From assembly GCA_038046625.1 (NCBI GenBank), contig JBBSVV010000005.1:7103-50185 (forward strand): a DNA stretch of 43,083 nt, in the 5' to 3' direction. Shown here piece by piece: positions 2,841-42,783 of this stretch. Positions within the stretch are counted from its first letter, which is position 1. Each line of letters begins with the position of its first letter. This DNA comes from an archaeon (GTDB taxonomy: Archaea > Iainarchaeota > Iainarchaeia > Iainarchaeales > Iainarchaeaceae). A program made the position numbers and the translations under genes. The notes under the pieces were generated by a model. It had not been told where the DNA came from and did no database searches. It saw nothing but the letters and a program-made list of their open reading frames with translations.

Positions 2841-4244
2841 ATGCCGGAAAACCTCTTCAACAAAGTTTGGCAATTACACGAAGTGCAGAAGCTCCCTTCT
2901 GGAGAATCGCAGTTATTCATAGGCCTGCATTTGATTCATGAGGTAACTTCTCCGCAGGCCTTTCAGATGCTCCGGGAACAAAACTTGAAAGTCGCTTTTC
3001 CCGAGCGCACAATAGCCACGGTCGACCACATTGTTCCGACGGCTTCACAAAAAAGGCCTTACTCAGATTCAATGGCCGAAGCAATGATGGGCGAAATAGA
3101 AAAAAACGCGAAACAATTTGGCGTAAGGTTTTACGGAGTTGATTCAGGAAAGCAGGGCATAGTGCATGTGATAGGCCCCGAGCTCGGGCTTACACAGCCA
3201 GGGATGACAATTGCCTGCGGCGACTCGCATACAAGTACGCACGGCGCTTTCGGTGCAATAGCATTCGGCATAGGAACCACGCAGGTCAGGGATGTTCTCG
3301 CGAGCCAATGCATCTCTCTTGCAAAACCCAAAGTCAGGAAAATAGGTGTTTCAGGAAAGCCTGGCAAAGGAGTTTACTCGAAAGACGTGATACTCAAAAT
3401 AATCCAGCAGCTTGGAGTCAAAGGCGGAATAGGCTACTCTTATGAGTATGCCGGCGAAACATTTGAGAACATGAGCATGGAAGAAAGGATGAGCGTCTGC
3501 AACATGAGCATCGAAGGCGGCGCACGCGCGGGATATGTAAACCCTGACAGAACAACTTTTGATTACATGAAAGGAAGGGAGTTTGCTCCAAAAGGGGATG
3601 CATTCGACAGGGCTGTTGAATGGTGGAAGCAAATAGCCTCCGACAAGAATGCAAAGTATGATGATGTTTTCAAATTAAATGTTTCATCGCTCGAGCCAAT
3701 GGTTACATGGGGAATAAATCCCGGGCAGGCCCTCGGGGTAACAGAAAACATTCCAATGCTGAGCGAAGTTCCGGAAAACGAAAGGCAAACAACACAGGAA
3801 GCCCTCACTCATATGGGTTTCAAGGAAGGCGCGCCGATCGAAGGAACAAAAATCGATGTCGCTTTCATAGGCTCCTGCACAAATTCAAGGATTTCCGATT
3901 TGAGGGAGGCAGCAAAAATTGTGGAGGGCCGGAAAGTGAATGCGAACGTGAAGGCGCTCGTTGTTCCGGGTTCGCAACAAGTGAAGGTTCAGGCGGAAAA
4001 GGAAGGCCTCGACAAAATATTTTTGAAAGCGGGCTTTGAGTGGAGGCACGCGGGCTGTTCAATGTGCTTAGCAATGAATCCCGACAAATTGCAGGGGCGG
4101 GAAATTTCGGCTTCATCCTCTAACAGGAATTTCATCGGGCGCCAAGGCTCTTCGACAGGAAGAACGCTCTTAATGAGTCCCGCAATGGTTGCCGCCGCCG
4201 CAATAAATGGGAAAGTTGTTGATGTGCGCGAGGTGCTGCAATGA
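2841..4244 (+). CDS. leuC: 3-isopropylmalate dehydratase large subunit (long, bacterial-type)
   Basis: 467 aa with aconitase-family motifs ([41 protein letters not shown]), followed by leuD. Confidence 0.95.
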
Positions 4245-4335
4245 TTACAGCAAAAGCGAGCGTAGCGAGCCAAAGCTATGCGAAGCATAGGTTGTCGTAC
4301 CCAACAGCCGAAACTGTTGTGCGCGAGGTTTTACA
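4245..4335 (+). repeat. stop/start-bridging intercistronic element, copy A (leuC|leuD)
   Basis: 91-nt insert between genes that would otherwise overlap by ATGA. Hairpins CTATGC-GAA-GCATAG (4276-4290) and CAACAG-CCGAAA-CTGTTG (4302-4319). 26 nt are identical to copy C. The 32-codon mini-ORF 4241-4339 is locked between two ATGA overlaps. Confidence 0.8.
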
Positions 4336-4941
4336 ATGACTGTAATAAATCAAGTTGCAGGCAAGGGTCTCCCGTTGCGCGGAAACGACATTGACACCGA
4401 CAGGATAATTCCCGCACGTTATTTGAAAACAATCACATTTGAAGGTCTCGGAAAATACGCTTTCTATGATGAGCGCTTTGACTCATCCGGAAAACCTAAA
4501 AAGCACGCTTTCAATGACTCGAAATACAAAGGTGCCTCAATCCTCATAGTGAACAAGAACTTCGGCTGCGGCTCCTCGCGCGAACATGCGCCGCAGGCGT
4601 TAATGAAGTTCGGCATAAAAGCCATTGTAGGCGAAAGCTTTGCGGAAATATTTGCGGGCAACTGCCAGTTGCTCGGAATACCAACAGTAACCGCGAGCGC
4701 GGAGGATGTGAAACTCCTGCAGGGCTTTATCGAGAATGATGATTCCAATGAAATCCTCAACCTGAATCTCGAACAAAAAATTCTTTCCTTTAACGATTCT
4801 TCTATTCCAATAGACATTTCCGAAGGAAAAAGAAAAACGCTCGTGAGCGGAACATGGAATACCCTCGGAATGCTTGTAGAGGCACTGCCGAAAACGAAAG
4901 AAACGGCAAAAAAAATCCCTTACCTAAACGGATTCAAATAG
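4336..4941 (+). CDS. leuD: 3-isopropylmalate dehydratase small subunit
   Basis: 201 aa with aconitase swivel-domain motifs (NFGCGSSREHAP) directly after leuC. Confidence 0.95.
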   Translation: MTVINQVAGKGLPLRGNDIDTDRIIPARYLKTITFEGLGKYAFYDERFDSSGKPKKHAFNDSKYKGASILIVNKNFGCGSSREHAPQALMKFGIKAIVGESFAEIFAGNCQLLGIPTVTASAEDVKLLQGFIENDDSNEILNLNLEQKILSFNDSSIPIDISEGKRKTLVSGTWNTLGMLVEALPKTKETAKKIPYLNGFK

Positions 4942-5125: not shown

Positions 5126-5165
5126 ACCAAACACATATACTATAAGACAAAAAAATATTAACAGG

Positions 5166-5187
5166 TTGCGCGCAACAAAATTATTTT
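5166..5187 (+). repeat. 3'-end motif copy J (TTGCGCGCAACAAAATTATTTT)
   Basis: Same TTGC..GCA + AAAATTATTT arrangement as copies E, F and I. It contains the palindrome TTGCGCGCAA. Confidence 0.35.
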
Positions 5188-5408
5188 ACTTTTTCTCTTC
5201 CGAGTTAAAATCTATTAGCTCTTTGGCATCTTCGCCTTCTTCAATCCACCTTTTGTAGGCATATTCCCTGAACGGATCAATCGGTTTCTTTCTCTTTTTT
5301 TCTATGGTTTTCCTAGCCACTTCATCGCCTTATTCAAAATAATATAGGCAAGCACTATTTGTGCCTTTCCATGCCAATTTTCCAAAAAAGCACGTTTTTA
5401 TAGTTGTT

Positions 5409-13989: not shown

Positions 13990-15189
13990 ATGAAAAAAGT
14001 CATTCCCGCATCAAGAACCCTTGGAGTGAAGCACGCTAACCGTGATTTGGTTCCGGTTGCGGAGCAGGTCGAGGCTTCAGGAAAAAAAGTCCTCTATCTG
14101 AATATCGGCGACCCAATTGTCTTTGATTTCAGGGCCCCTGAATCCATTTGGCAGAGCATTGAGCAGCACAAGCGCGAGTGCGAGGGCTACACAAACGCAA
14201 TCGGCTCGAACGGGGCGAGGCAGGCAATAGCGGATTATGCGAAACGCGGCGGCATCAACGGCGTCACAAAAGATGATGTCATTAGCTTTGTCGGGGGCAA
14301 CGAGGCAATAATACTCTCGATGCAGGCGCTCCTCAACCCCGGAGAAAACGTTCTTTTGCCCGGGCCAGGGTATCCTGTTTACACCGGCGAAATGAGCTTC
14401 CTCGAGTGCCCATTGAATGTTTACCAATTGGACGAGGAGAACGATTGGCAGCTCGACGTTGACAGCATAAGGAAGAACGTGAACAAAAAAACAAAGGCAA
14501 TCGTCATAATCAACCCGAACAATCCCACGGGAAGCGTCCTCTCAAGGAAAAACCTTTCAGAACTCGTGAACATTGCCGGCGAATTCGATTTGCCCATTCT
14601 CGCGGACGAAACCTACGACCAGATTCTCTACGACGGCACGGAATTTGTTCCCCTTGCAGGCGTTTCAAAGGACGTGCCGGTGCTTTCATTGGGAAGCATT
14701 TCAAAAACGCATCTCGTTCCGGGTTTCCGCGCGGGCTGGATTTACAGGAAAGACCCAAAAGGCGCACTTGATGATTATTTTGAGGCAATGCACAGGCTCT
14801 GCCGCCTCAGGCTTTCAAATGCAGGAATAGGGCAGGTCGCCATAGAGGCGGCGCTTAACGGCGAGCAAAACCACGTGAAGGAAATGGTTGCAAAACTAAA
14901 AAAGAGGCGCGACCTCACCTTCAAAAGGCTGAATGAAATCCACGGCCTCTCATGCGTCAAGCCGAAAGGAGCGTTCTACGCGTTCCCGCGCATAAACCTT
15001 CCGATAAAATCAGACAAGGAATTCGTGATTGATTTGCTCAAGGAAACTGGCGTTCTTGTCGTGCACGGCGAAGGCTCCGGCCAGAAAGAAGGCACGCACC
15101 ACTTCCGCATCGTTTTCCTTCCTCCAGAAGAAACCCTCTCCGAGGCATTCAACCGCATAGAGGGTTACATAAAAAAGAAATTCAAGTGA
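13990..15189 (+). CDS. class I/II pyridoxal-phosphate aminotransferase (aspartate/aromatic/alanine type)
   Basis: 399 aa from the ATG at 13990, with NPNNPTG and SLGSISKTHLVPGFRAGW (PLP-lysine) motifs. Confidence 0.9.
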   Translation: MKKVIPASRTLGVKHANRDLVPVAEQVEASGKKVLYLNIGDPIVFDFRAPESIWQSIEQHKRECEGYTNAIGSNGARQAIADYAKRGGINGVTKDDVISFVGGNEAIILSMQALLNPGENVLLPGPGYPVYTGEMSFLECPLNVYQLDEENDWQLDVDSIRKNVNKKTKAIVIINPNNPTGSVLSRKNLSELVNIAGEFDLPILADETYDQILYDGTEFVPLAGVSKDVPVLSLGSISKTHLVPGFRAGWIYRKDPKGALDDYFEAMHRLCRLRLSNAGIGQVAIEAALNGEQNHVKEMVAKLKKRRDLTFKRLNEIHGLSCVKPKGAFYAFPRINLPIKSDKEFVIDLLKETGVLVVHGEGSGQKEGTHHFRIVFLPPEETLSEAFNRIEGYIKKKFK

Positions 15190-19922: not shown

Positions 19923-21184
19923 TCTTTCCCCTCATAAGCATTTTCGAGTTCCCCGAAAAAATTTGGAAAACTCTTTGAAACAACTTTTTCATCATCAATA
20001 ATCATTCCGCCGGTTTTCAGGCCCAGAACCGAGAATGCCATTGCAATCCTGTGGTCATTAAAAGAATTAATCGCTGTGCCATGCGGTTTTCCGCCGTCAA
20101 TTTCGAGAAAATCCGCGCCATACCTGCACTTCACTCCGCATTTCTCCAGATTTTTCGCCACGCTCTCGATGCGGTTGCTCTCCTTTGCCGCGAGATGAGA
20201 AATTCCCGTTATTTTGGTTTTGCCTTTTGCAACAGCCGCGACAACAGCAATGCTTGGAACAATGTCAGGGCAATCGGCCATGTCAACGCCTATCCCTTTC
20301 ATCGGCTTTCCCTTCACTTCAATAAAATCCTTTCCTTTCTTCAGGGAGCAACCCATTTTCGAAACCAAATCCAAAAACTTTTTGTCCCCCTGGCTCGAGT
20401 AAGGATTCAAGTTATTCACCTTGGCCTTTCCTCCTGTTATTGCTGCGGCCGCAAAAAAATACGAAGCCGAACTGTAATCCCCCTCAATCTCATAATCCTG
20501 TGCCTTGTACATTTCCTTTCCCTTCACAAAAAACTCCGTGTAATCATGGTTCACGCATAAAACACCGAAAGATTTCATGCAGTCAATGGTGATGTCCACA
20601 TAAGGCCCCGATTTCAATTCCCCTGAAACCTTTGCAAGCACGCCCTTTTCCGTGTAAGGCGCCGAAACCAGGATTGCGCTCAAAAACTGCGAACTTTCAG
20701 ATCCCTCAACAATCGTTTTTCCCCCTTCAAGGCCTCCGCCCTTTACCTTTACAGGAAAAGAGCCGTTCTCCGAAGCGGAAGCCTCAGCACCGAGCTTTTC
20801 CAAAGCAGAAACAAGTCCCGAAACAGGCCTCTCCTTGAGCCTCGCATCACCCGTAATCACTGAATTTCCGTTTGCGAGCGCAGCCAAGGGAACGAGAAAG
20901 CGCGCAGTTACCCCTGAATTGCCGACAAAAACCTCTTTGTGCGGAGCAACCAGCTTTCCTGCGGTGCCATGAACTATGAAATCCTTTCCATCAAAATCAA
21001 TGCGTGCGCCGAACAAAGCAAGTGCATTCGCCGCGTGCCTCTGGTCATCCGCATAAAGCGCATTCCGCAAAAAACTTTTTCCATCCGCAAGCGAAGCAAT
21101 GAAAAGAGCCCTCAATGTATGGGCCTTCGATGGAGGCGCATTGAAAACGGCATTCAGCTTTTTCACTGCATCTATTTTCCTCAT
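19919..21184 (-). CDS. aroA: 3-phosphoshikimate 1-carboxyvinyltransferase (EPSP synthase)
   Basis: 421 aa with PPSKAHTLRAL, KESNRI and DHRIAMAF motifs. Confidence 0.95.
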   Translation of the reverse strand: MRKIDAVKKLNAVFNAPPSKAHTLRALFIASLADGKSFLRNALYADDQRHAANALALFGARIDFDGKDFIVHGTAGKLVAPHKEVFVGNSGVTARFLVPLAALANGNSVITGDARLKERPVSGLVSALEKLGAEASASENGSFPVKVKGGGLEGGKTIVEGSESSQFLSAILVSAPYTEKGVLAKVSGELKSGPYVDITIDCMKSFGVLCVNHDYTEFFVKGKEMYKAQDYEIEGDYSSASYFFAAAAITGGKAKVNNLNPYSSQGDKKFLDLVSKMGCSLKKGKDFIEVKGKPMKGIGVDMADCPDIVPSIAVVAAVAKGKTKITGISHLAAKESNRIESVAKNLEKCGVKCRYGADFLEIDGGKPHGTAINSFNDHRIAMAFSVLGLKTGGMIIDDEKVVSKSFPNFFGELENAYEGKE

Positions 21185-21275
21185 TTTCTCACCTCACCGT
21201 TTTCCCTCTTCGAGGACTTCGCGACCGGCGGTACCGACAGCATACCCTTCGGGTACACTTGGCTTCGCACTGCAA
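21185..21275 (-). repeat. stop/start-bridging intercistronic element, copy B (trpA|aroA)
   Basis: 91 nt. Hairpin GTACCC-GAA-GGGTAT (21242-21256) and CCTC-GAA-GAGG (21205-21215). The 32-codon mini-ORF 21181-21279 is bounded by ATGA overlaps, and the 3' end repeats the trpA 3' end (GGTGA..AAATGA). Confidence 0.75.
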
Positions 21276-22091
21276 TCATTTCATCACCGTTGCAGCCTTG
21301 AGTTTCGCGCAAAAATCCTTCAATTCCAAAATCATTGCGCCTTCATTCCCAAGGTTCCTCTCAATCACCGCCTCAATTGCGGAACCCACAATGGCGCCGT
21401 CGGCCCCCGCAGAAATTATTTTCTTCACGTGCTCAGGCATTGAAATCCCGAAGCCGATGCATGCGGGCAACTTTGAATTTTTTTTCACGCGCCCCGCGAG
21501 TTCCAATGCAGAATCCTTTATGTCCTTCCTTTCCCCTGTAACCCCGAGCAGGCCAACCACATACATGAAACCGCCCGCTTTTTTCGAAATTTCCCTTATC
21601 CTCTTGTCGCTTGTCGTGGGGGCAACCATAAAAATCATTTTCAAGCCAATCTCCGTGGCCTCTTTCAATGCTTCGCGTGATTCCTCGATAGGCATGTCAG
21701 CAATGAGAATCCCGTCAACGCCGGCTTCCTTCGCCTTAACCAAAAAATCCTTTACGCCATTCGAGTAGACAAGATTGTAATACAAAAGCAGGCCTATCGG
21801 GATTTCGCTGTTCTTTGCCCTTATGCCTTTTATTATTTCAAAGCACTTGTCCGGGTTGATTCCTGCATCCAATGCGCGCTGGTCCGCAGCCTGGATTCTC
21901 TTTCCATCCGCAATGGGGTCGGAAAAAGGGAAACCGAGCTCGAGAGCATCGGCACTTTCAAGGAGCGTTTCCACGATTTTTTTTGAGGCATTGAAATCAG
22001 GGTCGCCGAGAACCACAAAAGGAATGAATGCGCCTTCATTTTTTCCCCTTAATTTTCCAAACATTTTTCCGTAGCGGTCCATATAATTCAC
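21276..22091 (-). CDS. trpA: tryptophan synthase alpha chain
   Basis: 271 aa with ELGFPFSDPIADG and CIGFGIS motifs. Confidence 0.95.
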   Translation of the reverse strand: MNYMDRYGKMFGKLRGKNEGAFIPFVVLGDPDFNASKKIVETLLESADALELGFPFSDPIADGKRIQAADQRALDAGINPDKCFEIIKGIRAKNSEIPIGLLLYYNLVYSNGVKDFLVKAKEAGVDGILIADMPIEESREALKEATEIGLKMIFMVAPTTSDKRIREISKKAGGFMYVVGLLGVTGERKDIKDSALELAGRVKKNSKLPACIGFGISMPEHVKKIISAGADGAIVGSAIEAVIERNLGNEGAMILELKDFCAKLKAATVMK

Positions 22092-23273
22092 CTATTTGCC
22101 CTCCAGTGCTTTTGCCACGTGCTCGAGGTCCTTGTCGCCCCTTCCGGACAAATTAATTATGACCACGTCCTTTTTCGAGCAGTTCTTCGCGTACTTCAAT
22201 GCATACGCAACGGCGTGGCTCGACTCCAATGCAGGAATAATCCCTTCCTTTTCGGAAAGCAATTTGAATGCGGCGAGCGCCTCGGTATCCGTCGCGTAAA
22301 AATACTTCGCCCTCTTCAAATCGCGCAGCATCGCGTGCTCCGGCCCCACGGCGGAATAGTCAAGGCCAGCGGAAATCGAGTGCGTGTTGTAAATCTGGCC
22401 GAACCTGTCCTGCAATACATAAGTGAGGGTTCCATGCAATACTCCTTTGCGCCCAAGCTTCGGGTCGGCAAAACGAGCGGCATGCTTTCCGCTTTCGATT
22501 CCCATTCCGCCTGCCTCAACCCCGATGAGTTCCACTTTCTTGTCCTTCACGAACTCCCTGAAAATCCCTATTGCGTTGCTCCCGCCGCCGACACACGCAA
22601 TAATGGCTTTCGGCAGCTTCCCCTCTTTTTTAAGGATTTGCTTTCTTGCCTCTTTCCCTATTACGCTCTGGAAATGCGCAACCATGGATGGGTAAGGGTG
22701 CGGCCCCAAAACAGAACCAAGGAGATAATGGGTATCCTGAACATTCGCTGTCCAGTCGCGTAGCGCCTCATTTATCGCGTCCTTCAATGTTTTGCTTCCG
22801 CTCGAAACAGGAATCACTTTTGCGCCGGCCAATTTCATCCTGAAAACATTGGGCCTCTGCCTTTCAATGTCAACCTCACCCATGTAAATCTCGCATTTCA
22901 GGCCAAGTTTTGCGCACGCAATGGCAGTGGCAACTCCGTGCTGCCCCGCGCCTGTTTCCGCGATGATTCTTTTTTTGCCCATGTACTTCGCGAGCAAAGC
23001 CTGCCCAAGGGCGTTGTTGATTTTATGCGCCCCGGTATGCGCAAGATCCTCACGCTTTAAATAAATTCTGCATCCGAGTTCCCTGCTCAACTCAGAGGCG
23101 AAAGTCAACGGAGTAGGCCTTCCAACAAAACTCGCGAGCAATTCATTAAGTTCCGCATTGAATTTTTTGTCCTTGCGGGACTTTTCAAATGCCGCTTCGA
23201 GTTCCTTCACTGCGGGCATCAGTGTTTCAGGGACAAACTGGCCGCCGTAAGAACCGAACATCCCCTTCCTCAT
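22092..23273 (-). CDS. trpB: tryptophan synthase beta chain
   Basis: 393 aa with HTGAHKINN and GGGSNAIG motifs. Confidence 0.95.
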
Positions 23274-25665: not shown

Positions 25666-26249
25666 TTTTTTGCCCCCTTGGCCATTTTCATTACGTTCTC
25701 AATCATTAATCCGCCTTCAGGCGTAAGAATGCTTTCAGGGTGGAACTGCACACCGAAAGAAACGTGCTTTTTGTGCCGCACACCCATAATAATTCCTGAT
25801 TCGCTTTTCGCCGTGACTTCCAGAACACCGGGAATCTTTTCCCCGGCAAGAGAGTGGTAACGGCCGGCCTGAAAAGGGTTCGAAAGCCCCTGAAAAATCC
25901 CTTTTCCGTCATGGGAAACCATTGAAGGCTTTCCGTGGATGGTTTCAACGGCCTTTCCGACCTTTCCGCCGAACGCCTCAATCATTGCCTGCTCACCCAG
26001 GCAAACGCCGAACAAAGGAATTTTTCCGGAATACTCTTTAATGACTGGCATGCTGTTTCCGGCATTTGCGGGATTTGAAGGCCCCGGAGAAATCACAATC
26101 AAATCAGGCCCGAACCCGGAAATTATTTCCCTGATTTTTTTCATCGGAACATCATTCCTGTAAACCTCGACCCTGCAGCCGCGCTTCTCGAACTCTTCGA
26201 CCAAATTATAAGTGAACGAATCGAAATTATCAAGGAAAAATACCTTCAC
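25662..26249 (-). CDS. trpG: anthranilate synthase component II (glutamine amidotransferase)
   Basis: The conserved domain starts at (V/M)KVFFLDNFDSFTYNL with GTG at 26249, and carries GVCLGEQ and HPES motifs. The ORF stays open upstream to the ATG at 26387 through element D, giving a 46-aa non-homologous extension. Confidence 0.85.
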   Translation of the reverse strand: MKVFFLDNFDSFTYNLVEEFEKRGCRVEVYRNDVPMKKIREIISGFGPDLIVISPGPSNPANAGNSMPVIKEYSGKIPLFGVCLGEQAMIEAFGGKVGKAVETIHGKPSMVSHDGKGIFQGLSNPFQAGRYHSLAGEKIPGVLEVTAKSESGIIMGVRHKKHVSFGVQFHPESILTPEGGLMIENVMKMAKGAKK

Positions 26250-26383
26250 AACCCTTTCGCCGGTTCGCCCTAGCGGGTGCAGGGGGAGCGACTGCCCCTG
26301 CTCCTTGTACCCGTAGGGTACGAGGCCTCGCGGAATCTTTGGATTCTGCAAGGTCGCAGGGCCATGGCTCACTTTGTTCGCAA
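26250..26383 (-). repeat. stop/start-bridging intercistronic element, copy D (trpE|trpG), in frame with trpG
   Basis: 134 nt. Hairpins at 26333-26346 (GAATC/GATTC), 26307-26321 (GTACCC-NNN-GGGTAC) and 26279-26301 (GCAGGGG/CCCCTGC). It starts ATGATTGCG overlapping the trpE TGA. Confidence 0.7.
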
Positions 26384-27985
26384 TCATTCCAAACCCTCCG
26401 CGATTTCAATTGCCCTCAATGCCGCTTTCGCCTTTTTCTCGGTTTCCTCGAACTCCTTCTCAGGAACCGAATCGAACACAATGCCGGCTCCGGCTCTCAC
26501 ATAAGCCCTTCCTTTCTGCAGGGACATGCTCCTTATGACAATTGCGGAATCAAAGTCGCCTGAAGGCGTCAAGTAGCCTATGCTTCCTCCGTAAAACCCG
26601 CGCCTGGTCTTTTCATGCAGGCGTATCAGCTTCATTGCCTCTACCTTCGGCGCCCCAGTTAAGGTCCCCATGTTCATGGATGCGAGGTAAGCGTGCAGCG
26701 CATCCAAGTCGCTTTTCAGAATTCCTGAAACATTGCTCATGAGGTGCTGGACATGAGAGTACTTCTCAATCATGTAAGGCCTGTCACAATGCCTGGTTCC
26801 CGGTTCGCACACGCGCGCAACGTCATTGCGCGCCAAATCAATGAGCATCGTGTGCTCCGCCATTTCCTTCTCATCATTCTTCAATTCCGCTTCATAGCGT
26901 GAATCCAAATCCAAATCTATTTTCCCGTTTATTATGCCTCTCGGTTTTGTTCCCGCAATCGGCCGTATCTCAACTTTTTTCCTTTCGTCCCCTTCCACTT
27001 TGAGGAAGGTTTCGGGGCTGCTCCCCAAAAGTATTCCGGAACTGTTGTTGAAGTAGAACATGTAAGGGCTCGGGTTTAATTCGCGCAGGGCATTGTAAAT
27101 GTCCAGCGGTTCCGCCGAGTATGCCGCAATCATTGTCCTTGAAGGCACAACCTGGAAAACATCGCCAATGAGAACGTGCTTCTTGAGCCTCTCAACCATC
27201 GCGACAAACTCCTTCTTTGGTGTGTCGCTCGAAATCGATATTTTCTTTTTTTTATGGGGCTTCGGCTTCGGGGCAGTGGCGTCCAGCATTTTCCTGTATC
27301 CGTCAATTACTTCTGTGCACCTTTTTTCCTCGCTTTCCATGTCTTTTTCCGAAAAAATCAGCGCGTTGCACACAAAGCTTATTTCGTTTTTTTTGTGTTC
27401 GACAATGAAAAGGTTGTCGTAAAAATTCATTTCATAATCGGGCTCCTTCAGGACATCCTTCCTGTTCTTCGGGAGCTCCTCGAAATTGTCTATGAAATCA
27501 TACCCGATTGCGCCGATCAGGCCGCCGTACATGACAAAGGGCTTGTATGCGGGCTTCAGCCTGAATGCTATTGCGCGAAGCACATCCGCATGCGTTTTTC
27601 TCTTCAGCCTTTCCGATTCGCTCACCGTGCCCTTGTCAATTTTTATGCTTCCGGAAATTTTGTCCGCAGTGATTTTCAATCCGGAGCAGAAATCAAGGGA
27701 ATGGGCGATTTCTTTGAGGAATTTCCCGCCGGTTTCGCTGAGCGCAATCACCTCGAACCTTTCTCCTTTTCCGCGCGCCTTGAGGCAGGGCTCCGCGCTC
27801 CCGATGCTCTTTTCACCGTACTTTGTAACCACGTCGGCGCTTTCAAGCAAAACACAGTTCTTTTTTCTGCCGTAATCCGAGATTTTCGCGAAGAAATCGC
27901 AGGCGTTTCCGCTGAAAGGCATTGTTTCGTACAGCGGGACAATGCTTCCCGGCCTTGACTTCAATAGTTCTTCCGTGCCTTTCAT
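26384..27985 (-). CDS. trpE: anthranilate synthase component I
   Basis: About 533 aa from the ATG at 27985 (MKGTEELLK), with a C-terminal chorismate-binding domain (GAGIVFDSVPEKEFEETE). The track ORF extension to 28099 reads into the tRNA gene. Confidence 0.9.
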   Translation of the reverse strand: MKGTEELLKSRPGSIVPLYETMPFSGNACDFFAKISDYGRKKNCVLLESADVVTKYGEKSIGSAEPCLKARGKGERFEVIALSETGGKFLKEIAHSLDFCSGLKITADKISGSIKIDKGTVSESERLKRKTHADVLRAIAFRLKPAYKPFVMYGGLIGAIGYDFIDNFEELPKNRKDVLKEPDYEMNFYDNLFIVEHKKNEISFVCNALIFSEKDMESEEKRCTEVIDGYRKMLDATAPKPKPHKKKKISISSDTPKKEFVAMVERLKKHVLIGDVFQVVPSRTMIAAYSAEPLDIYNALRELNPSPYMFYFNNSSGILLGSSPETFLKVEGDERKKVEIRPIAGTKPRGIINGKIDLDLDSRYEAELKNDEKEMAEHTMLIDLARNDVARVCEPGTRHCDRPYMIEKYSHVQHLMSNVSGILKSDLDALHAYLASMNMGTLTGAPKVEAMKLIRLHEKTRRGFYGGSIGYLTPSGDFDSAIVIRSMSLQKGRAYVRAGAGIVFDSVPEKEFEETEKKAKAALRAIEIAEGLE

Positions 27986-28038
27986 AAAAACCACAAAACC
28001 GCGCTTCGGCGCCTCTTTCTTTTTGGTACAGCTTTTTC

Positions 28039-28058
28039 CTTTCTCTGCAAAGAGAAAG
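28039..28058 (-). promoter_or_regulatory. hairpin in the tRNA-Trp to trpE spacer
   Basis: Minus-strand CTTTCTC-TTTGCA-GAGAAAG has a 7-bp stem flanked by T5 and A5 that can extend it. It lies immediately 3' of the tRNA. Confidence 0.4.
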
Positions 28059-28069
28059 AAAAAGGTGTG

Positions 28070-28142
28070 TGGAGACAGAGGGATTTGAACCCCCATCAAT
28101 CGGTCTGGAGCCGATTACACTACCAGGTTATGCTATGTCTCC
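28070..28142 (-). tRNA. tRNA-Trp (anticodon CCA)
   Basis: Folded by hand. Acceptor GGAGACA/TGTCTCC, anticodon stem ATCGG/CCGAT with loop CTCCAGA, T-arm GGGGG-TTCAAAT-CCCTC, discriminator A73, no encoded CCA. G1-C72 plus A73 is the archaeal/eukaryal Trp identity set. Confidence 0.9.
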
Positions 28143-35656: not shown

Positions 35657-35716
35657 TGATGCATATTTAACAATACATTAAATGCGCATTCTTTATATAC
35701 TTAAATGTGCATAAAA
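35657..35716 (+). promoter_or_regulatory. ATG(N0-2)CAT palindromic boxes, candidate operators of TA locus 2
   Basis: TGATGCATAT (35657-35666), ATGCGCAT (35682-35689) and ATGTGCATAAAA (35705-35716). TGATGCATA is identical to the box at 5420-5428. Confidence 0.4.
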
Positions 35717-35723
35717 TAGATAG

Positions 35724-35969
35724 GTGATTTTTTTGAACATCAAGCTCGGGACACCTTACGAAGCCACCATGAAAAAGATTATAGACAAAGGATATGCCGG
35801 CAGCCAGACTGAAGTCATCAGGCAGGCACTAATGGCTTATGAGCGGATAATAGACGAGGAGGAAGTGAGGCTCGTCAATAAGGGCATAGCGGCTGAAATG
35901 GAGGAAATCCGCGCCGACATGAAAAGCACAAAAACGCTCGCCCAAATGAAGAAAAAGTACGGGTCGTGA
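35724..35969 (+). CDS. ribbon-helix-helix-type antitoxin (TA locus 2)
   Basis: NIKLGTPYEATMKKIIDKGYAGSQTEVIRQALMAY parallels the locus 1 antitoxin. The start is ambiguous: GTG at 35724, or TTG at 35733 preceded by GGTGA. Confidence 0.55.
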   Translation: MIFLNIKLGTPYEATMKKIIDKGYAGSQTEVIRQALMAYERIIDEEEVRLVNKGIAAEMEEIRADMKSTKTLAQMKKKYGS

Positions 35970-35973
35970 AACA

Positions 35974-36234
35974 GTGGAAGTGATATTCTCCCAAAAGGCC
36001 CAGAAAGCCCTCGATGAAATGGATAGCACATTAAGGGTAATGTTCCTCAAGCACGCGGAAAAAATCGCGTCCGGCTCGGAACAAAGGCACATGCGCTTCG
36101 GGCTGCCGTTCTATGCCGAGGAAGTCACAAGACAGGCAAGGCTCGTGTACAACTTCGAAGCCGGAAGCCTTTTCATAGTAAGGTGCTTTGCAACCCACAA
36201 AGAATACGAGAAATGGTACAAAAGCTACAAGTGA
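35974..36234 (+). CDS. RelE/ParE-superfamily-like toxin (TA locus 2)
   Basis: 86 aa with ...ARLVYNFEAGSLFIVRCFATHKEYEKWYKSYK. It is a paralog of 5691-5969, with a GTG start 4 nt after the antitoxin stop. Confidence 0.6.
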   Translation: MEVIFSQKAQKALDEMDSTLRVMFLKHAEKIASGSEQRHMRFGLPFYAEEVTRQARLVYNFEAGSLFIVRCFATHKEYEKWYKSYK

Positions 36235-37960: not shown

Positions 37961-38977
37961 TTATTTTCTCCTGAACAGCGCGCGGATTTCCTTCCCTGTT
38001 TTCTCTATCTGGTGCGCATTCTGTTTTTCCCTGAGCGCATTGAAATTCTTTGCGCCCGAGCGGTACTCATTAATCCACTCGTTCGCAAACTTTCCCGATT
38101 CAACATCCTTCAGGATTTCCTTCATGCGCTTCTTGACATCAGGCCCGATGATTCTGGTTCCCCTTGTGCGTCCGCCGTACTCTGCAGTATTTGAAACTAC
38201 GTGCCACATGTGCGCCATGCCGCCCTCGTAAACCAAGTCAACAATCAGCTTCATTTCATGCAGGCACTCAAAATAAGCCATCTCAGGCGGATAACCTGCC
38301 TCGACAAGTGTTTCAAAGCCAGCGGTAATGAGTTCTGAAAGGCCGCCGCACAAAACAGCCTGTTCCCCGAACAAGTCCTCGTAAGTTTCCTGCTCAAAAG
38401 TGCATTCCAAAACACCCGCTCTTGTAAGGCCGACGCCTTTCGCCATTGCCAACGCGGTTTCCTTTGCCTTTCCAGAAACATTCTGTTTTACCGCAATCAA
38501 ACCAGGAACTCCGAAGCCCGCGAGGTACTGCTTCCTTTCTTCCGTTCCGGGCGATTTCGGCGCAAGCATAATAACGTCAATCTCCTTTGGTGGTTTTATG
38601 AAACCAAAACAAATGTTAAAACCATGCGAAAAAGAAAGAGTTTTCCCTTTCTTCATGTGCGGCCTAATGTCCTTCTCAAAAACTTCGCCCTGAACCTCGT
38701 CAGGAATCAAGACATGTACAATATCGGCTTTTGCCGCTGCTTCGGAAGTTTCAAAAACCCCAAAACCGTAACTCTTCGCGTCCTGCCAGCTCTTGCTGCC
38801 CTTCTTCAAGCCTACTATCACATTGAGGCCTGAGTCCTTCATGCACTGCGCCTGGGCCTTTCCCTGGGCGCCATAACCTATAACCGCGATTGTCCTTCCC
38901 TTGAGCACGGAATAATCCGCGGCATCATCATACATCAGATTCAAAACCATTCCAAAAACCCCCAAAAACCAAATCAT
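37961..38977 (-). CDS. ilvC: ketol-acid reductoisomerase
   Basis: GYGAQGKAQA, class I KARI length. The likely start is the ATG at 38950 (MVLNLMYDDAADYSVLKG). Confidence 0.95.
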   Translation of the reverse strand: MIWFLGVFGMVLNLMYDDAADYSVLKGRTIAVIGYGAQGKAQAQCMKDSGLNVIVGLKKGSKSWQDAKSYGFGVFETSEAAAKADIVHVLIPDEVQGEVFEKDIRPHMKKGKTLSFSHGFNICFGFIKPPKEIDVIMLAPKSPGTEERKQYLAGFGVPGLIAVKQNVSGKAKETALAMAKGVGLTRAGVLECTFEQETYEDLFGEQAVLCGGLSELITAGFETLVEAGYPPEMAYFECLHEMKLIVDLVYEGGMAHMWHVVSNTAEYGGRTRGTRIIGPDVKKRMKEILKDVESGKFANEWINEYRSGAKNFNALREKQNAHQIEKTGKEIRALFRRK

Positions 38978-39462: not shown

Positions 39463-41147
39463 TTGAAATAATCCTTGCCTATCTTTTCTCCCCTCATTTC
39501 ACTGTTCGAGGCGCCGGCCGGCACAATCGGCAGGACAATCGCATCAGCCTTCACATGCACATTGATTATGGAAGTCTCGTCATTCTTCATCGCTTCCTGC
39601 AGCGCAGGCGCAATCTCCGAGTGCCTTTCAACAGTCAGTCCCTTGAGCGAATACGCCTGCGCGACCTTCTCGAAGTCAGGGATTTTTCCAAGCAAAACCT
39701 GGCTCCTCCTTCCCTCGTAAAACATGTCATTCCACGCGCGCACCATTCCCAGGTAACCGTTGTTCATGATTACATTAATGACTTTGACCTTGTTCACTTT
39801 CGCAGTCGCGAGCTCCTGCATAGTCATTACAAAAGAACCGTCGCCGTCAACATTGAAGACCTCCATGTCAGGGCAGGCAAATTTCGCGCCGATTGCCGCG
39901 GGAAACCCGAAACCCATTGTGCCAAGGCCTCCGGAAGTGATGAATTTTCTCGGCTTCGAGAACTTTATGAAGTGCGCAACATCCATCTGGTGCTCCCCGA
40001 CTCCAGTGGTCACGATCGTGTCATCCGTAAAAACCTTCTGAAGCTCGAACATCAATTTGCGCGGGTCAATGGGATTGGAATCAATGTTAATGTCCTCCGC
40101 ATACTCCTTCCGCATTACCTTCAGTTTTTCGTTCCACGCCTTGTTCTTCCACTGCATTTTCCTCACAATGCGCAGCATTTCCCCGAGAACCTCTTTTGCA
40201 TTCCCGAGTATTCCAAGCTGGGCTTTGCGGTTCTTGTGTATCTCGCTCGGGTCAATCTCAATGTGAATTACTTTTGCCTCCGGCGCAAACCCGCTCAAGT
40301 TTCCTGTTACGCGGTCGTCAAACCTTATTCCAATTGTAAAGAGCACATCACATTTCTGGATGGCATAAACCGCGGGAGGCTGGCCATGCATTCCAGTCAT
40401 GCCGAGCGAGAGAGGATGCCTTTCATCAAAAACCCCCTTGCCAGCTAGGGTGGTTGCAACCATTATATTGCATGTTTCCGCAAGCTCTTTAATCTCGTTG
40501 TGGCAGTTCGCGTGAACCGCGCCCCCTCCTGCAAGAAGCACGGGCCTTTGCGCCTCAAGCAGCATTCTGGACGCTTCCTTGATTGCTTCGGCATCAAAAC
40601 CGTTGATTACCTTATAACCCTTCAGCTTCACTTCTTTTTTTTCAGTAACCTCCTTTTGCTGCACATCCTTAGGCAACTCAATGTAAACCGGGCCCGGCCT
40701 GTTTGTCGAGGCAATGAAATAAGCCGCATCCACAATGCCGTCAATTTCGTTCGGGTCGGTAATCTGGAAATTGTGCTTCGTGATAGGCGTAGTAATTCCC
40801 ATCAAATCCGCTTCCTGGAACGCATCCTTTCCAATGAGGCTTGTGATAACCTGCCCGCCGATTGCAACCATGGGCACGGAATCCATGAACGCGTCCGCAA
40901 TACCCGTAACGAGATTTGTCGCGCCCGGGCCCGAAGTCCCGAGGCAAGTGCCTACCCTTCCCGAGGACTTTGCATAGCCCTCAGCCATGTGCGCGCCCCC
41001 CTGTTCGTGCCTCACGAGGATGTGCCTGAAAGAATTGTCCCTGTAAATTTCGTCATAAAAAGGAATCACGACCCCGCCGGGAATCCCGAACAGGCAGTCA
41101 ACGCCGTTCCTTTTCAGCGCCTCGAGAAAAACCTTTGCGCCCTTCAT
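39459..41147 (-). CDS. ilvB: acetolactate synthase large subunit
   Basis: 562 aa ThDP enzyme with GGLGTMGFGFPAAIGA and GDGSF motifs. Confidence 0.95.
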   Translation of the reverse strand: MKGAKVFLEALKRNGVDCLFGIPGGVVIPFYDEIYRDNSFRHILVRHEQGGAHMAEGYAKSSGRVGTCLGTSGPGATNLVTGIADAFMDSVPMVAIGGQVITSLIGKDAFQEADLMGITTPITKHNFQITDPNEIDGIVDAAYFIASTNRPGPVYIELPKDVQQKEVTEKKEVKLKGYKVINGFDAEAIKEASRMLLEAQRPVLLAGGGAVHANCHNEIKELAETCNIMVATTLAGKGVFDERHPLSLGMTGMHGQPPAVYAIQKCDVLFTIGIRFDDRVTGNLSGFAPEAKVIHIEIDPSEIHKNRKAQLGILGNAKEVLGEMLRIVRKMQWKNKAWNEKLKVMRKEYAEDINIDSNPIDPRKLMFELQKVFTDDTIVTTGVGEHQMDVAHFIKFSKPRKFITSGGLGTMGFGFPAAIGAKFACPDMEVFNVDGDGSFVMTMQELATAKVNKVKVINVIMNNGYLGMVRAWNDMFYEGRRSQVLLGKIPDFEKVAQAYSLKGLTVERHSEIAPALQEAMKNDETSIINVHVKADAIVLPIVPAGASNSEMRGEKIGKDYFK

Positions 41148-41226
41148 TCTACCGCCTCAACAGTTTCGGCTGTTGGGTACGACGGCGTACCCTTCGGGTA
41201 CACCTGACCTAACTTGCCTGCAAATC
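41148..41226 (-). repeat. stop/start-bridging intercistronic element, copy C (leuA|ilvB)
   Basis: 79 nt. Hairpins at 41187-41201 (GTACCC-GAA-GGGTAC in sense) and 41158-41175 (CAACAG-CCGAAA-CTGTTG). 26 nt are identical to copy A. The 28-codon mini-ORF 41144-41230 runs from a TTGA start overlap to an ATGA stop overlap. Confidence 0.8.
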
Positions 41227-42783
41227 TCAATTTATCGCCCTCTTTTCATTATTATGGTTCGCCATAGCCTTGTTAAGGCATTTGATAAGCGCCTGTGCAG
41301 AGGCCATTGCAATGTCCTCCTTCAATGCCTCGGCAGTGAAAGAACTGCCATTCGAATCCGTGATGGTTATTGTGACGTCCGCAAGCGCATCCGTGCCCCC
41401 GGTAATTGCCTTCAAGTTGTAGTCCTTTAACCTGAATTCTTTGCCTACCGCCCTTATTATCGCGTTCGCCATCGCATCAACCGGGCCGACACCCTCTGCC
41501 TTTGCGGCAACTTCCATGCCCTTGACGCTCAGCCTCACGCTTGCAACCGGCTTCACCTTGTTCCCCGTGCTGATTGTTATTTCCTCCAGCTTCACAAGAA
41601 CCTTTTCCGGCGAGAGCCTGTCGGCAATATTGTTCGCAATCGCAATTATGTCCTCCTCGAAAATGATTTTATTTTTGTCCGCGAGCGCCTTCATTTTGTC
41701 CGTGACATCCTGAACCTCCTTATTGCTCATGGAGTAGCCGCGCTTTTTCAGGAAATCCGCAACGGCCGCCTTTCCGGAATGCTTTCCAATCACGAGCTCG
41801 GTTGTTTTGCCAATGGTTAAAGGATTCATAATCTCGTAAACCTCGCGGTTCGCGAGGATTCCATGCTGGTGAATTCCGGCTTCATGCGCGAACGCATTCC
41901 TGCCGACAATGGCCTTGTTCGCCTGCACAACCATTGAAGTGAAGCCCGAAACCATTTTGCTCGTGTTGTAAATTTCATCCAGTTTTATGTTTGTGGTGGC
42001 ATTGAAATAATTCTCGCGCGCATGAAGGTTCATTATGACTTCTTCGAGCGCGGCATTTCCGGCCCTTTCCCCTATTCCGTTAATTGTGCCCTCGACCTGC
42101 GTGGCGCCGTTCTCGATGGCGGCGAGGCTGTTTGCAACGCTCAAACCAAGGTCATCGTGGCAGTGCGTGGAAATGGTTATTGATTCATTGTAATTCGGCG
42201 TGTTCGCAATAATGTCCTTAATCAGCGAACCGAATTCCTTTGGCTGCGTGTAACCGACAGTATCAGGAATGTTCAGAGTGGTTGCACCCGCATCAATTGC
42301 TTTTTCAAGCACATCATACAAAAATTCCTTTTCGCTCCTGCCCGCATCCTCCGGAGAAAATTCTATGTCCTCACAATAATTCTTTGCGTACCTCACCCAC
42401 TTCTCCGCCTCCGCCTTGACTTGAGCGGGTTCCATGTGCAGCTTGTACTTCATGTGTATCGGCGATGTCGCCAAAAAAACGTGGATGCGCGGCTTCTTCG
42501 CGGACTCGATTGCCTTGAAAGCCCTGTCAATGTCCTCCTTCCTGCACCTCGCGAGCGCGCACACAACCGGCTTGGAAAGGGTTTTGGCAATCTCCTTCAC
42601 CGCAATAAAATCATCATCGCTCGCAACCGGAAACCCGGCCTCGATGATGTCCACATTGAGGCGCTCGAGCTGGCGCGCAATCATTATTTTTTCTTTATGA
42701 GTAAGAGTTGCCCCCGGGCTCTGTTCGCCGTCACGAAGGGTCGTGTCGAAAATTTTTATCATTTTCTTTCCGCCTTCAGCCAT
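41227..42783 (-). CDS. leuA: 2-isopropylmalate synthase (long form with C-terminal LeuA regulatory domain)
   Basis: About 518 aa with [11 protein letters not shown] and HCHDDLGL motifs. ATG at 42783 (the track TTG at 42786; an ATG at 42762 is also possible). Confidence 0.95.

Follow-up and report, generated by a model that had tools for sequence, protein, structure and literature searches.

The described repeats closest in form to the elements reported here are the MITEs (miniature transposable elements with inverted repeats), represented in archaea by the SM elements of Sulfolobus and a MITE-like small-RNA element of Pyrobaculum calidifontis (PMC6009581), the repetitive extragenic palindromes (REPs) of proteobacteria with their composite forms (bacterial interspersed mosaic elements, BIMEs, and the REP doublets called REPINs), and the Rickettsia palindromic elements (RPEs). 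We describe here four inserts at operon junctions in a 43,083-nucleotide (nt) stretch of archaeal DNA (contig JBBSVV010000005.1, positions 7,103 to 50,185 of the forward strand; hereafter the window), which probably represent an undescribed family of small hairpin-forming mobile elements of the Iainarchaeia, a class of tiny groundwater archaea within DPANN. The genomes of DPANN archaea are tiny and tightly packed, and little is known of their mobile DNA. Like MITEs, the new elements are short, non-coding, structured, non-autonomous, present in many copies and flanked by duplications, but they lack terminal inverted repeats, their duplications measure 11-60 nt instead of being short and fixed, and only their 3' end is conserved. 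Near the 71 copies that we collected from genomes we found no recurring autonomous insertion sequence with the same ends, as a MITE would have; whole genomes were not searched for one. REPs, BIMEs and REPINs resemble them in their GC-rich hairpins at gene ends, their mosaic and nested modules and their possible effects on mRNA. REPs, however, are extragenic, make no target duplication and are linked to genes for REP-associated tyrosine transposases (RAYTs), whereas the elements described here are archaeal, carry long duplications and occupy operon junctions spanned by open frames. Around the copies we saw neither a gene resembling RAYTs nor any recurrent gene, and the copies themselves are mostly single or arranged in head-to-tail arrays, not in inverted pairs as REPs are. 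RPEs, finally, are hairpin repeats that can be translated and are tolerated in expressed frames, but they insert in frame within genes and enter the protein. The new elements lie between genes, carry a separate bridging open reading frame (ORF) and are accompanied by a duplication that restores both neighbours; fusion to a neighbour was found only in one window copy, as an N-terminal extension of trpG, and in one other locus, as a tail of ribosomal protein S19e. What appears to distinguish the family, judged from sequence comparison, is the combination of long, variable duplications that repair overlapping junctions with bridging ORFs that are under selection.

A repeat family at operon junctions

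Pfam assignments of the flanking genes place the four inserts at leuC|leuD (4241-4339, plus strand), trpA|aroA (21181-21279, minus strand), trpE|trpG (26243-26387, minus strand) and leuA|ilvB (41144-41230, minus strand); we refer to them as copies A to D. All four are in sense orientation, as had been proposed in a first-pass annotation made by a model from the letters and an ORF list, and the remaining operon junctions named there are 4-nt overlaps in the ORF table. A duplicate of the end of the upstream gene flanks every one of the four, in diverged form (20 nt in A, 16/21 nt in B, about 17 nt in C and 14-15 nt in D). For copy A the duplicate matches at 17/20 positions (TGCGCGAGGTGCTGCAATGA at 4225-4244 against TGCGCGAGGTTTTACAATGA at 4320-4339); the annotation had likened this one to a long target-site duplication, and its suggestion extends to all four copies. 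In what follows, X denotes the stretch just upstream of an element and X' its duplicate on the downstream side. We consider it likely, from these comparisons, that all four belong to a non-autonomous mobile family whose target duplication restores the junction and whose bridging frames are selected for within operons.

The window derives from a close relative of Candidatus Iainarchaeum andersonii (DPANN; hereafter I. andersonii), since its LeuC protein shares 97% identity, and its LeuD 94%, with the counterpart in that organism. The window contains exactly two occurrences of the 26-mer GTCGTACCCAACAGCCGAAACTGTTG, where shuffled sequences lead one to expect none. It had been rightly noticed that this word recurs without change, but the second occurrence is in copy D at leuA|ilvB (41148-41226) and not, as had been stated, in the trpE|trpG insert (26250-26383). 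In a collection of species-representative genomes the exact 26-mer was found at 10 loci, all from uncultured archaea (contigs of the Iainarchaeum type from metagenome-assembled genomes, MAGs, or a single amplified genome), four of them contigs of I. andersonii, and it is common to species whose proteins share only 60-80% identity. Scans with a degenerate 20-mer, TCGYACCCAACMGMCGAAAC, gave 63 genome loci with 71 distinct copies, nearly all in MAGs of Iainarchaeia/Diapherotrites and at least 16 in I. andersonii, and a further 64 metagenome loci with 32 additional distinct copies; viral contigs gave no match. Loci collected in this way are labelled below by L and a number. A covariance model (R1) built from eight copies returned 98 matches (92 distinct) in 695 kilobases (kb) of related loci. 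Run on 807 kb of control loci, which are for the most part bacterial leuD regions, it gave a single significant match, which proved to be an archaeal trpE|trpG junction (L136). Comparison of all collected copies with the window by BLAST disclosed no fifth copy there. A simple copy measures 45-90 nt, and one that holds a nested module is longer; nesting is common, as are head-to-tail arrays. The arrays (L104, L096, L116, L103 and L002) consist of whole element units with no unique spacers, and so are not CRISPR repeats. The proposal that the family is undescribed has held up: a search of the whole window against Rfam at the gathering threshold returned only a transfer RNA (tRNA), with no C/D box or H/ACA small RNA, a permissive search of 4200-4360 gave only hits with E > 2 and more than 25 bits under the cut-off, and full-text literature searches yielded no description of such an element. 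As far as that literature shows, it is the first small non-autonomous element of its kind known for the Iainarchaeia, and it may be used as a marker for their contigs in metagenomes.

Roughly one copy in two has, directly after its terminal CTGTTG, a repeat of the stretch immediately upstream of the element. Across the genome and metagenome collections there are 32 non-redundant cases, 11-60 nt in length with a median of 24, and some are perfect (29/29 in L134, 19/19 in L105 and 18/18 in L129). The duplicated DNA may be the end of a protein gene (for example in L001, L015, L120 and L223), the 3' end of a tRNA (L087, L130, L233 and L006), the 5' end of a tRNA encoded on the opposite strand (L102, L135 and L084) or non-coding sequence. 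Relatives with empty sites, which the first-pass annotation had proposed to look for, are found for three of the window junctions. The leuC|leuD junction is empty, being either an overlap or a direct abutment, in L012, L013, L015 and L017, and filled in the window, L011, L016, L221 and I. andersonii; the inserts in I. andersonii, L016 and L221 differ in their left boundaries. At trpE|trpG an intact ATGA overlap is present in L137, L142 and L147 and an insert in the window and in L136, the latter with a 20-nt duplication, TGGCGGAGG..AAAATGA. At trpA|aroA the overlap is empty in L137. The X of L016 resembles a Woesearchaeota-type LeuC end, yet the LeuC of this locus is 82% identical to that of the window, like its neighbours, and we therefore rejected a breakpoint of recombination or horizontal transfer as the source of the pattern. 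Two of these junctions are otherwise occupied in other loci: at trpE|trpG, L139 carries 520 nt of inserted DNA that contains an ORF (about 905-1440), and at trpA|aroA, L138 carries a 150-nt insert with a module resembling the type-2 module described below (about 5150-5300). What we regard as the best evidence that the element may have moved recently as a unit comes from two copies in I. andersonii, which have a 116-nt block in common with only 2 mismatches, including a nested type-2 module. CTGTTG is the exact point at which their likeness ends, and the two copies have different duplications.

The differences between X and X' are themselves informative. By codon, 22 are synonymous and 8 non-synonymous, and codon positions one, two and three account for 9, 7 and 21 changes respectively. 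This is an excess of synonymous change beyond what constraint on the gene copy alone would give (P = 0.0002 against 40% synonymous and 0.008 against 50%). The three nucleotide differences in copy A are all synonymous in the shared frame, and comparison with an outgroup suggests that they lie in X'. In L001 and L015, where an element lies at one and the same gene in species distant from each other, X' tracks X in each lineage while the interiors of the elements differ. Repeated insertion at permissive sites, combined with deletion between duplicates, would explain both this concerted pattern and the tandem arrays, but it would not by itself account for the synonymous bias. In most cases a stop codon or the end of a tRNA marks the right edge of the duplicate, a regularity that selection alone does not demand.

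Bridging frames and the choice of sites

Insertion into an overlap leaves both genes intact because the duplication spans the Shine-Dalgarno sequence (SD), the start and the stop codon: the upstream gene would retain its own end and stop (in X), and the downstream gene would gain a fresh SD and start (in X'). This is a route by which a parasite may enter even a 4-nt overlap, with its own duplication rebuilding the stop, the ribosome-binding site and the start. The first-pass annotation had gone further and proposed that the element targets ATGA overlaps, and here our results disagree. Members of the same family also adjoin the 5' and 3' ends of tRNAs, convergent gene ends (a few bases from the stop codon) and intergenic DNA, in both orientations, with duplications of 11-60 nt; in tandem gene contexts, 25 are sense and 6 antisense. 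Survival in a compact genome accounts for the concentration at stop/start sites better than targeting does: at such sites an insertion would be tolerated only if its duplication restores the upstream stop together with the downstream SD and start. Since the genomes are compact and the duplication restores the junction, survivors accumulate at the boundaries of genes and tRNAs.

Within operons, selection would then keep a frame open from the first NTGA, through the element, to the second NTGA, and we infer that ribosomes would be relayed from the upstream gene to the bridge and from the bridge to the downstream gene by two steps of termination and reinitiation. Among copies with a start codon overlapping the upstream stop, 17 of 24 have a frame open through the whole element, and 11 of these 17 frames end between -4 and +12 nt from the start of the next long ORF or fuse to it. 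For independent copies at operon junctions that have a duplication, the frame is open and in phase with the stop of X' in 13 of 16, a count limited to frames that end at a stop inside X' but with the trpG fusion of copy C counted in. The 13 are copies A (with its I. andersonii ortholog), B, C and D and those in L001, L083 (at +4905), L125, L120, L221, L136, L106/L111, L007 and L223; the exceptions are in L083 (at +5951), L003 and L124. Because the prior for phase is one third and about 59% of sense frames are open, the excess of open, in-phase bridges is large (P ~1e-4 even at p = 1/3), and the earlier observation that open frames connect the two overlaps can now be put as far commoner than chance. 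The I. andersonii ortholog of copy A (L008) has acquired a nested module of 45 nt, and its bridge, at 47 codons, is still open and in phase. Some bridges translate the 3' module as SYPTAETV and others as RTQQPKLL, in agreement with the first-pass observation that different copies use different frames, and Pfam searches with the four bridge peptides of the window gave no match. It is therefore the frame that is kept and not the peptide. Such relay ORFs amount to a natural experiment on translational coupling in archaea. They also carry a warning for annotation, in that short ORFs and N-terminal extensions at junctions of this kind are derived from the element. In L002 (3577-4629, minus strand) the S19e ORF has a long tail rich in Lys, Glu and Gln that reads through an array of elements (tandem, 2.4 copies of a 51-nt unit) into the start region of the next gene.

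Element structure and the four window copies

Aligned on the 3' module, the copies follow a common, asymmetric plan: an optional 5' module, hairpin 1, a linker and hairpin 2. The 5' module has two main forms, TTGCGAAC-NNN-GTGAGCCAAG and ..TGCGAAGCCAAG. Hairpin 1 has a stem of 6-11 base pairs whose sequence varies from copy to copy and a loop that is often GAA, GAAA or GCAA (GNRA); it is followed by one unpaired base and then TCGYACCC. The 3' module consists of NTCGYACCC and hairpin 2, CAACMG-MCGAAA-CKGTTG, and the element ends precisely there. Pairing of UGCGA in the 5' module with UCGYA in the linker is possible on paper. To align hairpin 1 we used the covariance model, which copes with differences in loop length. 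In the resulting alignment 94% of the cells at paired positions can pair, against 26-59% when the partners are slid by 1-3 columns, and double-sided changes occur at 13 of 14 pairs, including all eight of hairpin 1. One pair of hairpin 2 alternates between A-U (52 copies) and C-G (30 copies). These results agree with the earlier view that conservation acts on the nucleic acid through compensatory changes in the stem. Read on the sense strand, hairpin 1 has 25 G.U or U.G cells against 5 A.C or C.A cells, and this excess, together with the GNRA-type loops, suggests that the stem matters as sense-strand RNA. The hairpins are kept by selection, probably in that form. We also compared the structure with known small RNA motifs. 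A C/D box was rejected, as the ATGA-containing ends give no D box and the spacing is wrong, and so was a hammerhead-like core, for which CGAAAC is present but the CUGANGA box is absent and hairpin 2 pairs across GAAA.

A second repeat family accompanies the first. This palindromic type-2 module, CCTTG-hairpin-CGAGGCCTCG-hairpin-CAAGG, is 45-51 nt long. It sits at the same position in the hairpin-1 loop in copy C, L008 (about 4050-4094), L083, L093 and L125, and it is free-standing in L006 (about 3300-3360), L099 (about 3360-3420) and L105. The leuC|leuD junction affords a clean comparison, the element of the window being empty of the module and that of I. andersonii filled.

Copy A begins at X (4225-4244), the last 20 nt of leuC including its stop, with the ATGA overlap at 4241-4244. 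Its body (4245-4319; R1 match at 4273-4319, 51 bits) comprises the 5' module (4245-4275; ..GCGAGCGTAGCGAGCCAAAG), hairpin 1 (CTATGC-GAA-GCATAG, 4276-4290) and the conserved 3' module (4294-4319), made up of GTCGTACCC and hairpin 2 (CAACAG-CCGAAA-CTGTTG, 4302-4319); both hairpins are as first drawn. X' (4320-4339) holds the SD and ATG (4336) of leuD and the stop of the bridging ORF. That mini-ORF, correctly identified at the outset, has 32 codons and runs on the plus strand from the leuC stop overlap at 4241 to 4339, where its TGA overlaps the leuD ATG. Copy D, on the minus strand, is alike to copy A over 39 nt at 87% identity. It extends from the leuA end (X, 41227-41241, AGGGCGATAAATTGA, with a TTGA overlap) through a body at 41158-41226 (R1 match, 51 bits) with hairpin 1 (GGTGTACCC-GAA-GGGTACGCC, 41204-41184) and a 3' module (41183-41158) identical to that of copy A, to X' (41144-41157, AGGCGGTAGAATGA), which contains the ilvB ATG (41147-41145). 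The bridging ORF has 28 codons (41230-41144).

Copies B and C, both on the minus strand, depart further from the common plan. In copy B, X (21276-21291) is the trpA end AACGGTGATGAAATGA, and the body (21202-21275) belongs to a divergent subfamily, with the 5' module TTGCAGTGCGAAGCCAAG, hairpin 1 (GTACCC-GAA-GGGTAT, 21256-21242), the linker GTCGGTACC and a 3' hairpin CCTC-GAA-GAGG. X' (21181-21201, AACGGTGAGGTGAGAAAATGA) includes the aroA ATG (21184-21182), and a 32-codon bridging ORF spans 21279-21181. At the same junction in I. andersonii (L145) the first 18 nt equal those of copy B and the interior is different; both belong to a TCGGTA subfamily, one of those in which the 3' module differs. 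Upstream in this operon trpB and trpA directly abut (stop 22092, start 22091; window 21276-22092), and the other trp junctions overlap. In copy C, X (26384-26400) is the trpE end CGGAGGGTTTGGAATGA and the body (26260-26383) has the 5' module TTGCGAACAAAGTGAGCC, a hairpin 1 (CCCTGC-GA[..]A-GCAGGG) whose loop is interrupted by a 51-nt type-2 module (26303-26353) nested at GA|A, and a degenerate 3' module with the hairpin AACC-GGCGAAAG-GGTT. X' is placed approximately at 26243-26259 (CGAAAGGGTTGTGAAGG), and the likely trpG start is the GTG at 26249-26247. Two earlier statements need amending for this copy. The GTACCC/GGGTAC stem that had been taken for hairpin 1 of both B and C is so in B, but in C it belongs to the nested module; the motif GTACCC-NNN-GGGTAC occurs 3 times in the window against 0.02 expected. 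A bridging ORF between two overlaps, likewise, is present in A, B and D, but the frame of copy C continues from ATG 26387 straight into trpG, with no second ATGA. Folding of the sense strand gave z-scores of -3.3, -1.2, -4.2 and -2.4 for A to D respectively.

A number of observations weigh against a mobile, junction-repairing element. About half of the copies have no detectable duplication, and mobility is inferred from comparative data only. Terminal inverted repeats are not above chance in 10 well-bounded copies, and no transposase, reverse transcriptase or other recurrent gene was found near the 71 copies, nor any in viral contigs. The synonymous bias between X and X' is not predicted by the ribosome relay. 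Frames through the element are open in 59% of cases on the sense strand and 64% on the other strand, compared with 35% in shuffled sequences; part of the openness is thus intrinsic, because the element is poor in stop codons on both strands. Finally, the orthologous copies in L106 and L111 maintain hairpin 1 by compensatory changes, and such changes, the sense bias and the tolerance of G.U pairs suggest a role for the RNA at the level of the host, for which a purely selfish element would have no need.

It is possible, though in our view unlikely, that the elements are in the first place a structured sense RNA useful to the host (in mRNA stability or processing, in the stoichiometry of cistrons, as a small RNA or as a tRNA leader) and that their dispersal is secondary. 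Covariation that persists even among orthologous copies, GNRA and GAA loops on the sense strand with the 25 to 5 ratio of G.U to A.C, the 25 to 6 sense bias and the runs of T after some short-form copies all speak for such a function. Some copies are also placed in a manner that would suit it. An element or variant ends 0-1 nt before the 5' end of a same-strand tRNA in L005 (34-88), L009 (7862-7906, tRNA-Ala) and L092 (about 3467-3540, tRNA-Ile), all on the minus strand, and because copies abut tRNA 5' ends, RNase P would release an RNA with the exact 3' end of the element. A conserved host RNA is harder to reconcile with relatives that thrive with empty junctions, with an interior that has been swapped between close relatives at one site (copy B and L145), with positions that are not conserved across species and with tandem arrays and nesting that look parasitic; nor does Rfam offer a match.

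Routes of insertion

If the mobile reading is right, insertion would be of a copy-and-paste kind, starting from the 3' end of the element on a nicked or stalled target and duplicating 11-60 nt of it, so that the duplicate begins straight after the element's 3' end; target sites would tend towards 1-3 nt of microhomology. The junctions are in keeping with such a polarity. Elements end precisely on the 3' side, and on the 5' side many copies vary: one subfamily begins within 3 nt of TTGCGAAC, other copies have an unrelated leader of 6-30 nt, and in the near-identical I. andersonii pair unique filler of 19 and 22 nt separates the duplicate from the shared block. Immediately left of X stands a G in 13 of 22 cases. 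Identity with the 3' end of the element runs on average for 1.18 nt, against 0.32 nt in a null of random sites, and for 0.86 nt when one copy that adjoins another element is omitted. In the 10 well-bounded copies the best terminal inverted repeat matched at 5-8/14 positions, where shuffled 5' ends gave a median of 6-7 and a 95th percentile of 8-9. An all-against-all BLASTP of the ORFs around the 71 copies found only orthologs, and neither some 1.3 Mb of flanking loci nor the viral contigs yielded a partner that encodes a reverse transcriptase. The candidate processes are target-primed reverse transcription and template switching in replication, and also a transposase with long, variable staggers. 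A long and variable duplication, a precise 3' end and the lack of inverted repeats or a linked transposase together describe an insertion chemistry that has not yet been assigned in archaea.

Repeats in more distant flanks, sought up to 7 kb away, were found only in L129 and in the L103 array. In L129 (2593-3717) an 18-nt perfect direct repeat, CGCCTCAGTCCGCCCATC, flanks 1.06 kb that encodes a DUF211 protein and a VIT1-like protein, carries the element at its 3' end and has no transposase gene. This single case may be one of gene mobilisation defined by the 3' end of the element. The L129 contig is labelled Thaumarchaeota, and L275 has a related element and flank with different DNA upstream; apart from tRNA, a search of both loci against Rfam returned nothing.

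One explanation for the polarity of insertion would be retroposition in the manner of the short interspersed nuclear elements (SINEs), with a sense RNA ending in ..CUGUUG reverse-transcribed at a nicked target and a second nick 11-60 nt away. SINEs and retroposons that lack long terminal repeats likewise have a conserved 3' end, a heterogeneous 5' end, variable duplications and microhomology. The precise 3' junctions and 5' filler of 19-22 nt, the structural signals on the sense strand and the 1.06-kb insert, with its two upstream genes, 3' element and 18-nt perfect flanking repeat, would all follow. Set against these are the lack of a reverse transcriptase gene near any copy, the 3' junction's lack of both a tail and an untemplated run of T, and the defined 5' end (TTGCGAAC) of one subfamily, which fits a DNA transposon equally well. 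Nor did an internal promoter or a partner enzyme, as SINEs have, come to light in the loci examined. We know of no target-primed retroposition in archaea that makes duplications, and we regard the proposal as unlikely. DPANN archaea do encode reverse transcriptases, mainly of the diversity-generating retroelement (DGR) type (PMC8632793), and this lends it some support. A fuller version, in which the elements would be an archaeal analogue of SINEs whose sense RNA, with its 3' end ..CUGUUG set at some loci by RNase P, is copied into nicked DNA by a polymerase that is target-primed or switches templates, which leaves long variable duplications and can take upstream genes along, as in the 1.06-kb DUF211-VIT1 insert of L129, is more doubtful still. 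If true, it would be the first such retroposition in archaea and a route for gene cassettes in DPANN genomes. The duplications are not the template and variable repeats of a DGR, which are about 100 nt or more, change only at template adenines and have an adjacent reverse transcriptase; here the repeats are 11-60 nt, differ in all base types, mostly at third positions, and no reverse transcriptase is nearby.

We think it no better than unlikely, too, that the family derives from a DNA transposon and is moved in trans by a transposase making long, variable staggered cuts. Long and variable target duplications have been documented for IS1630 (19-26 bp) and for insertions of restriction-modification genes (PMC2853133), so that both a transposase and gene insertions furnish a precedent. 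As in the present case, these duplications are of tens of bases and some lie at gene 3' ends or tRNA genes, but the inserts are of kilobase scale and bear genes, whereas ours are structured elements of 45-130 nt with dozens of copies per genome, and the range of 11-60 nt exceeds that of IS1630. The subfamily with defined ends and the occurrence of both orientations would be expected of a transposon. Terminal inverted repeats and a linked or recurrent transposase near the copies would be expected as well, and neither is present; across subfamilies only the 3' end is conserved. Palindrome-associated transposable elements derived from IS200/IS605 offer a likeness of another kind, being asymmetric and archaeal in occurrence, with subterminal hairpins and strand-specific features. 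IS200/IS605 elements, however, integrate 3' of a fixed target of four or five nucleotides and leave no duplication, whereas the present elements make long duplications and have no fixed target word, their left flanks being diverse (ATGA, TAA, TAG, tRNA ends and others). The sequence ACCCAAC in the 3' module also fits the RYYYAAC of an integron attC site, but the bases after GTTG are variable target sequence and the hairpins are separate. Unlike integron cassettes, the flanking genes are core biosynthetic operon genes that are adjacent in relatives too.

A dedicated enzyme might be dispensed with altogether if a replication fork stalled at a gene or tRNA boundary, switched template into a hairpin element and returned 11-60 nt upstream. 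Microhomology at the junction, filler on the 5' side, tandem arrays and sites at the boundaries of transcription units, including both ends of tRNAs, are all features that such switching would produce. It leaves unexplained both the exact end after hairpin 2 and the selection on structure, and we consider it quite improbable. It is very improbable that the element is removed from RNA as a bulge-helix-bulge intron or similar, with X' as the true C-terminal coding end. The synonymous bias of the X/X' differences (22 against 8) is what that would predict, but pairing at the boundaries is needed and palindromic starts occur in only some copies. No consistent bulge-helix-bulge motif could be drawn at the X/X' boundaries, by inspection only, the tRNA-flanking and antisense copies do not fit, and the upstream gene is already complete at X. 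That the mini-ORFs are genuine small protein genes, despite their open frames and the SYPTAETV common to several peptides, or that the spacers are ordinary divergent intergenic sequence, is hardly credible given a 3' module read in two frames, peptides without a Pfam match, stems that covary at the nucleotide level and a 26-mer that is identical across species with 60-80% protein identity.

Two further features of the window lie outside this family. Following a tRNA at 28070-28142, the minus strand of 27990-28069 carries a conserved motif, CCTTTTTCTTTCTCTTTGCAGAGAAAGGAAAAAGCTGTACCAAAAAGAAAGAG, and then a mini-hairpin, GCGCCGAAGCGC. Partial copies of the motif occur at 14878-14910 and 38611-38640, and motifs closely related to it come after tRNAs or genes in L002, L233, L263, L269, L097 and L110; it is probably another repeat found throughout the Iainarchaeia, or else a terminator. 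On the plus strand at 35724-36234, downstream of an AT-rich palindrome (35659-35712), two adjacent ORFs of 81 and 86 amino acids are possibly a toxin-antitoxin pair: the 86-residue product has no Pfam match, and the 81-residue product has a sub-threshold match to ParD/ribbon-helix-helix antitoxins (E = 0.0098).

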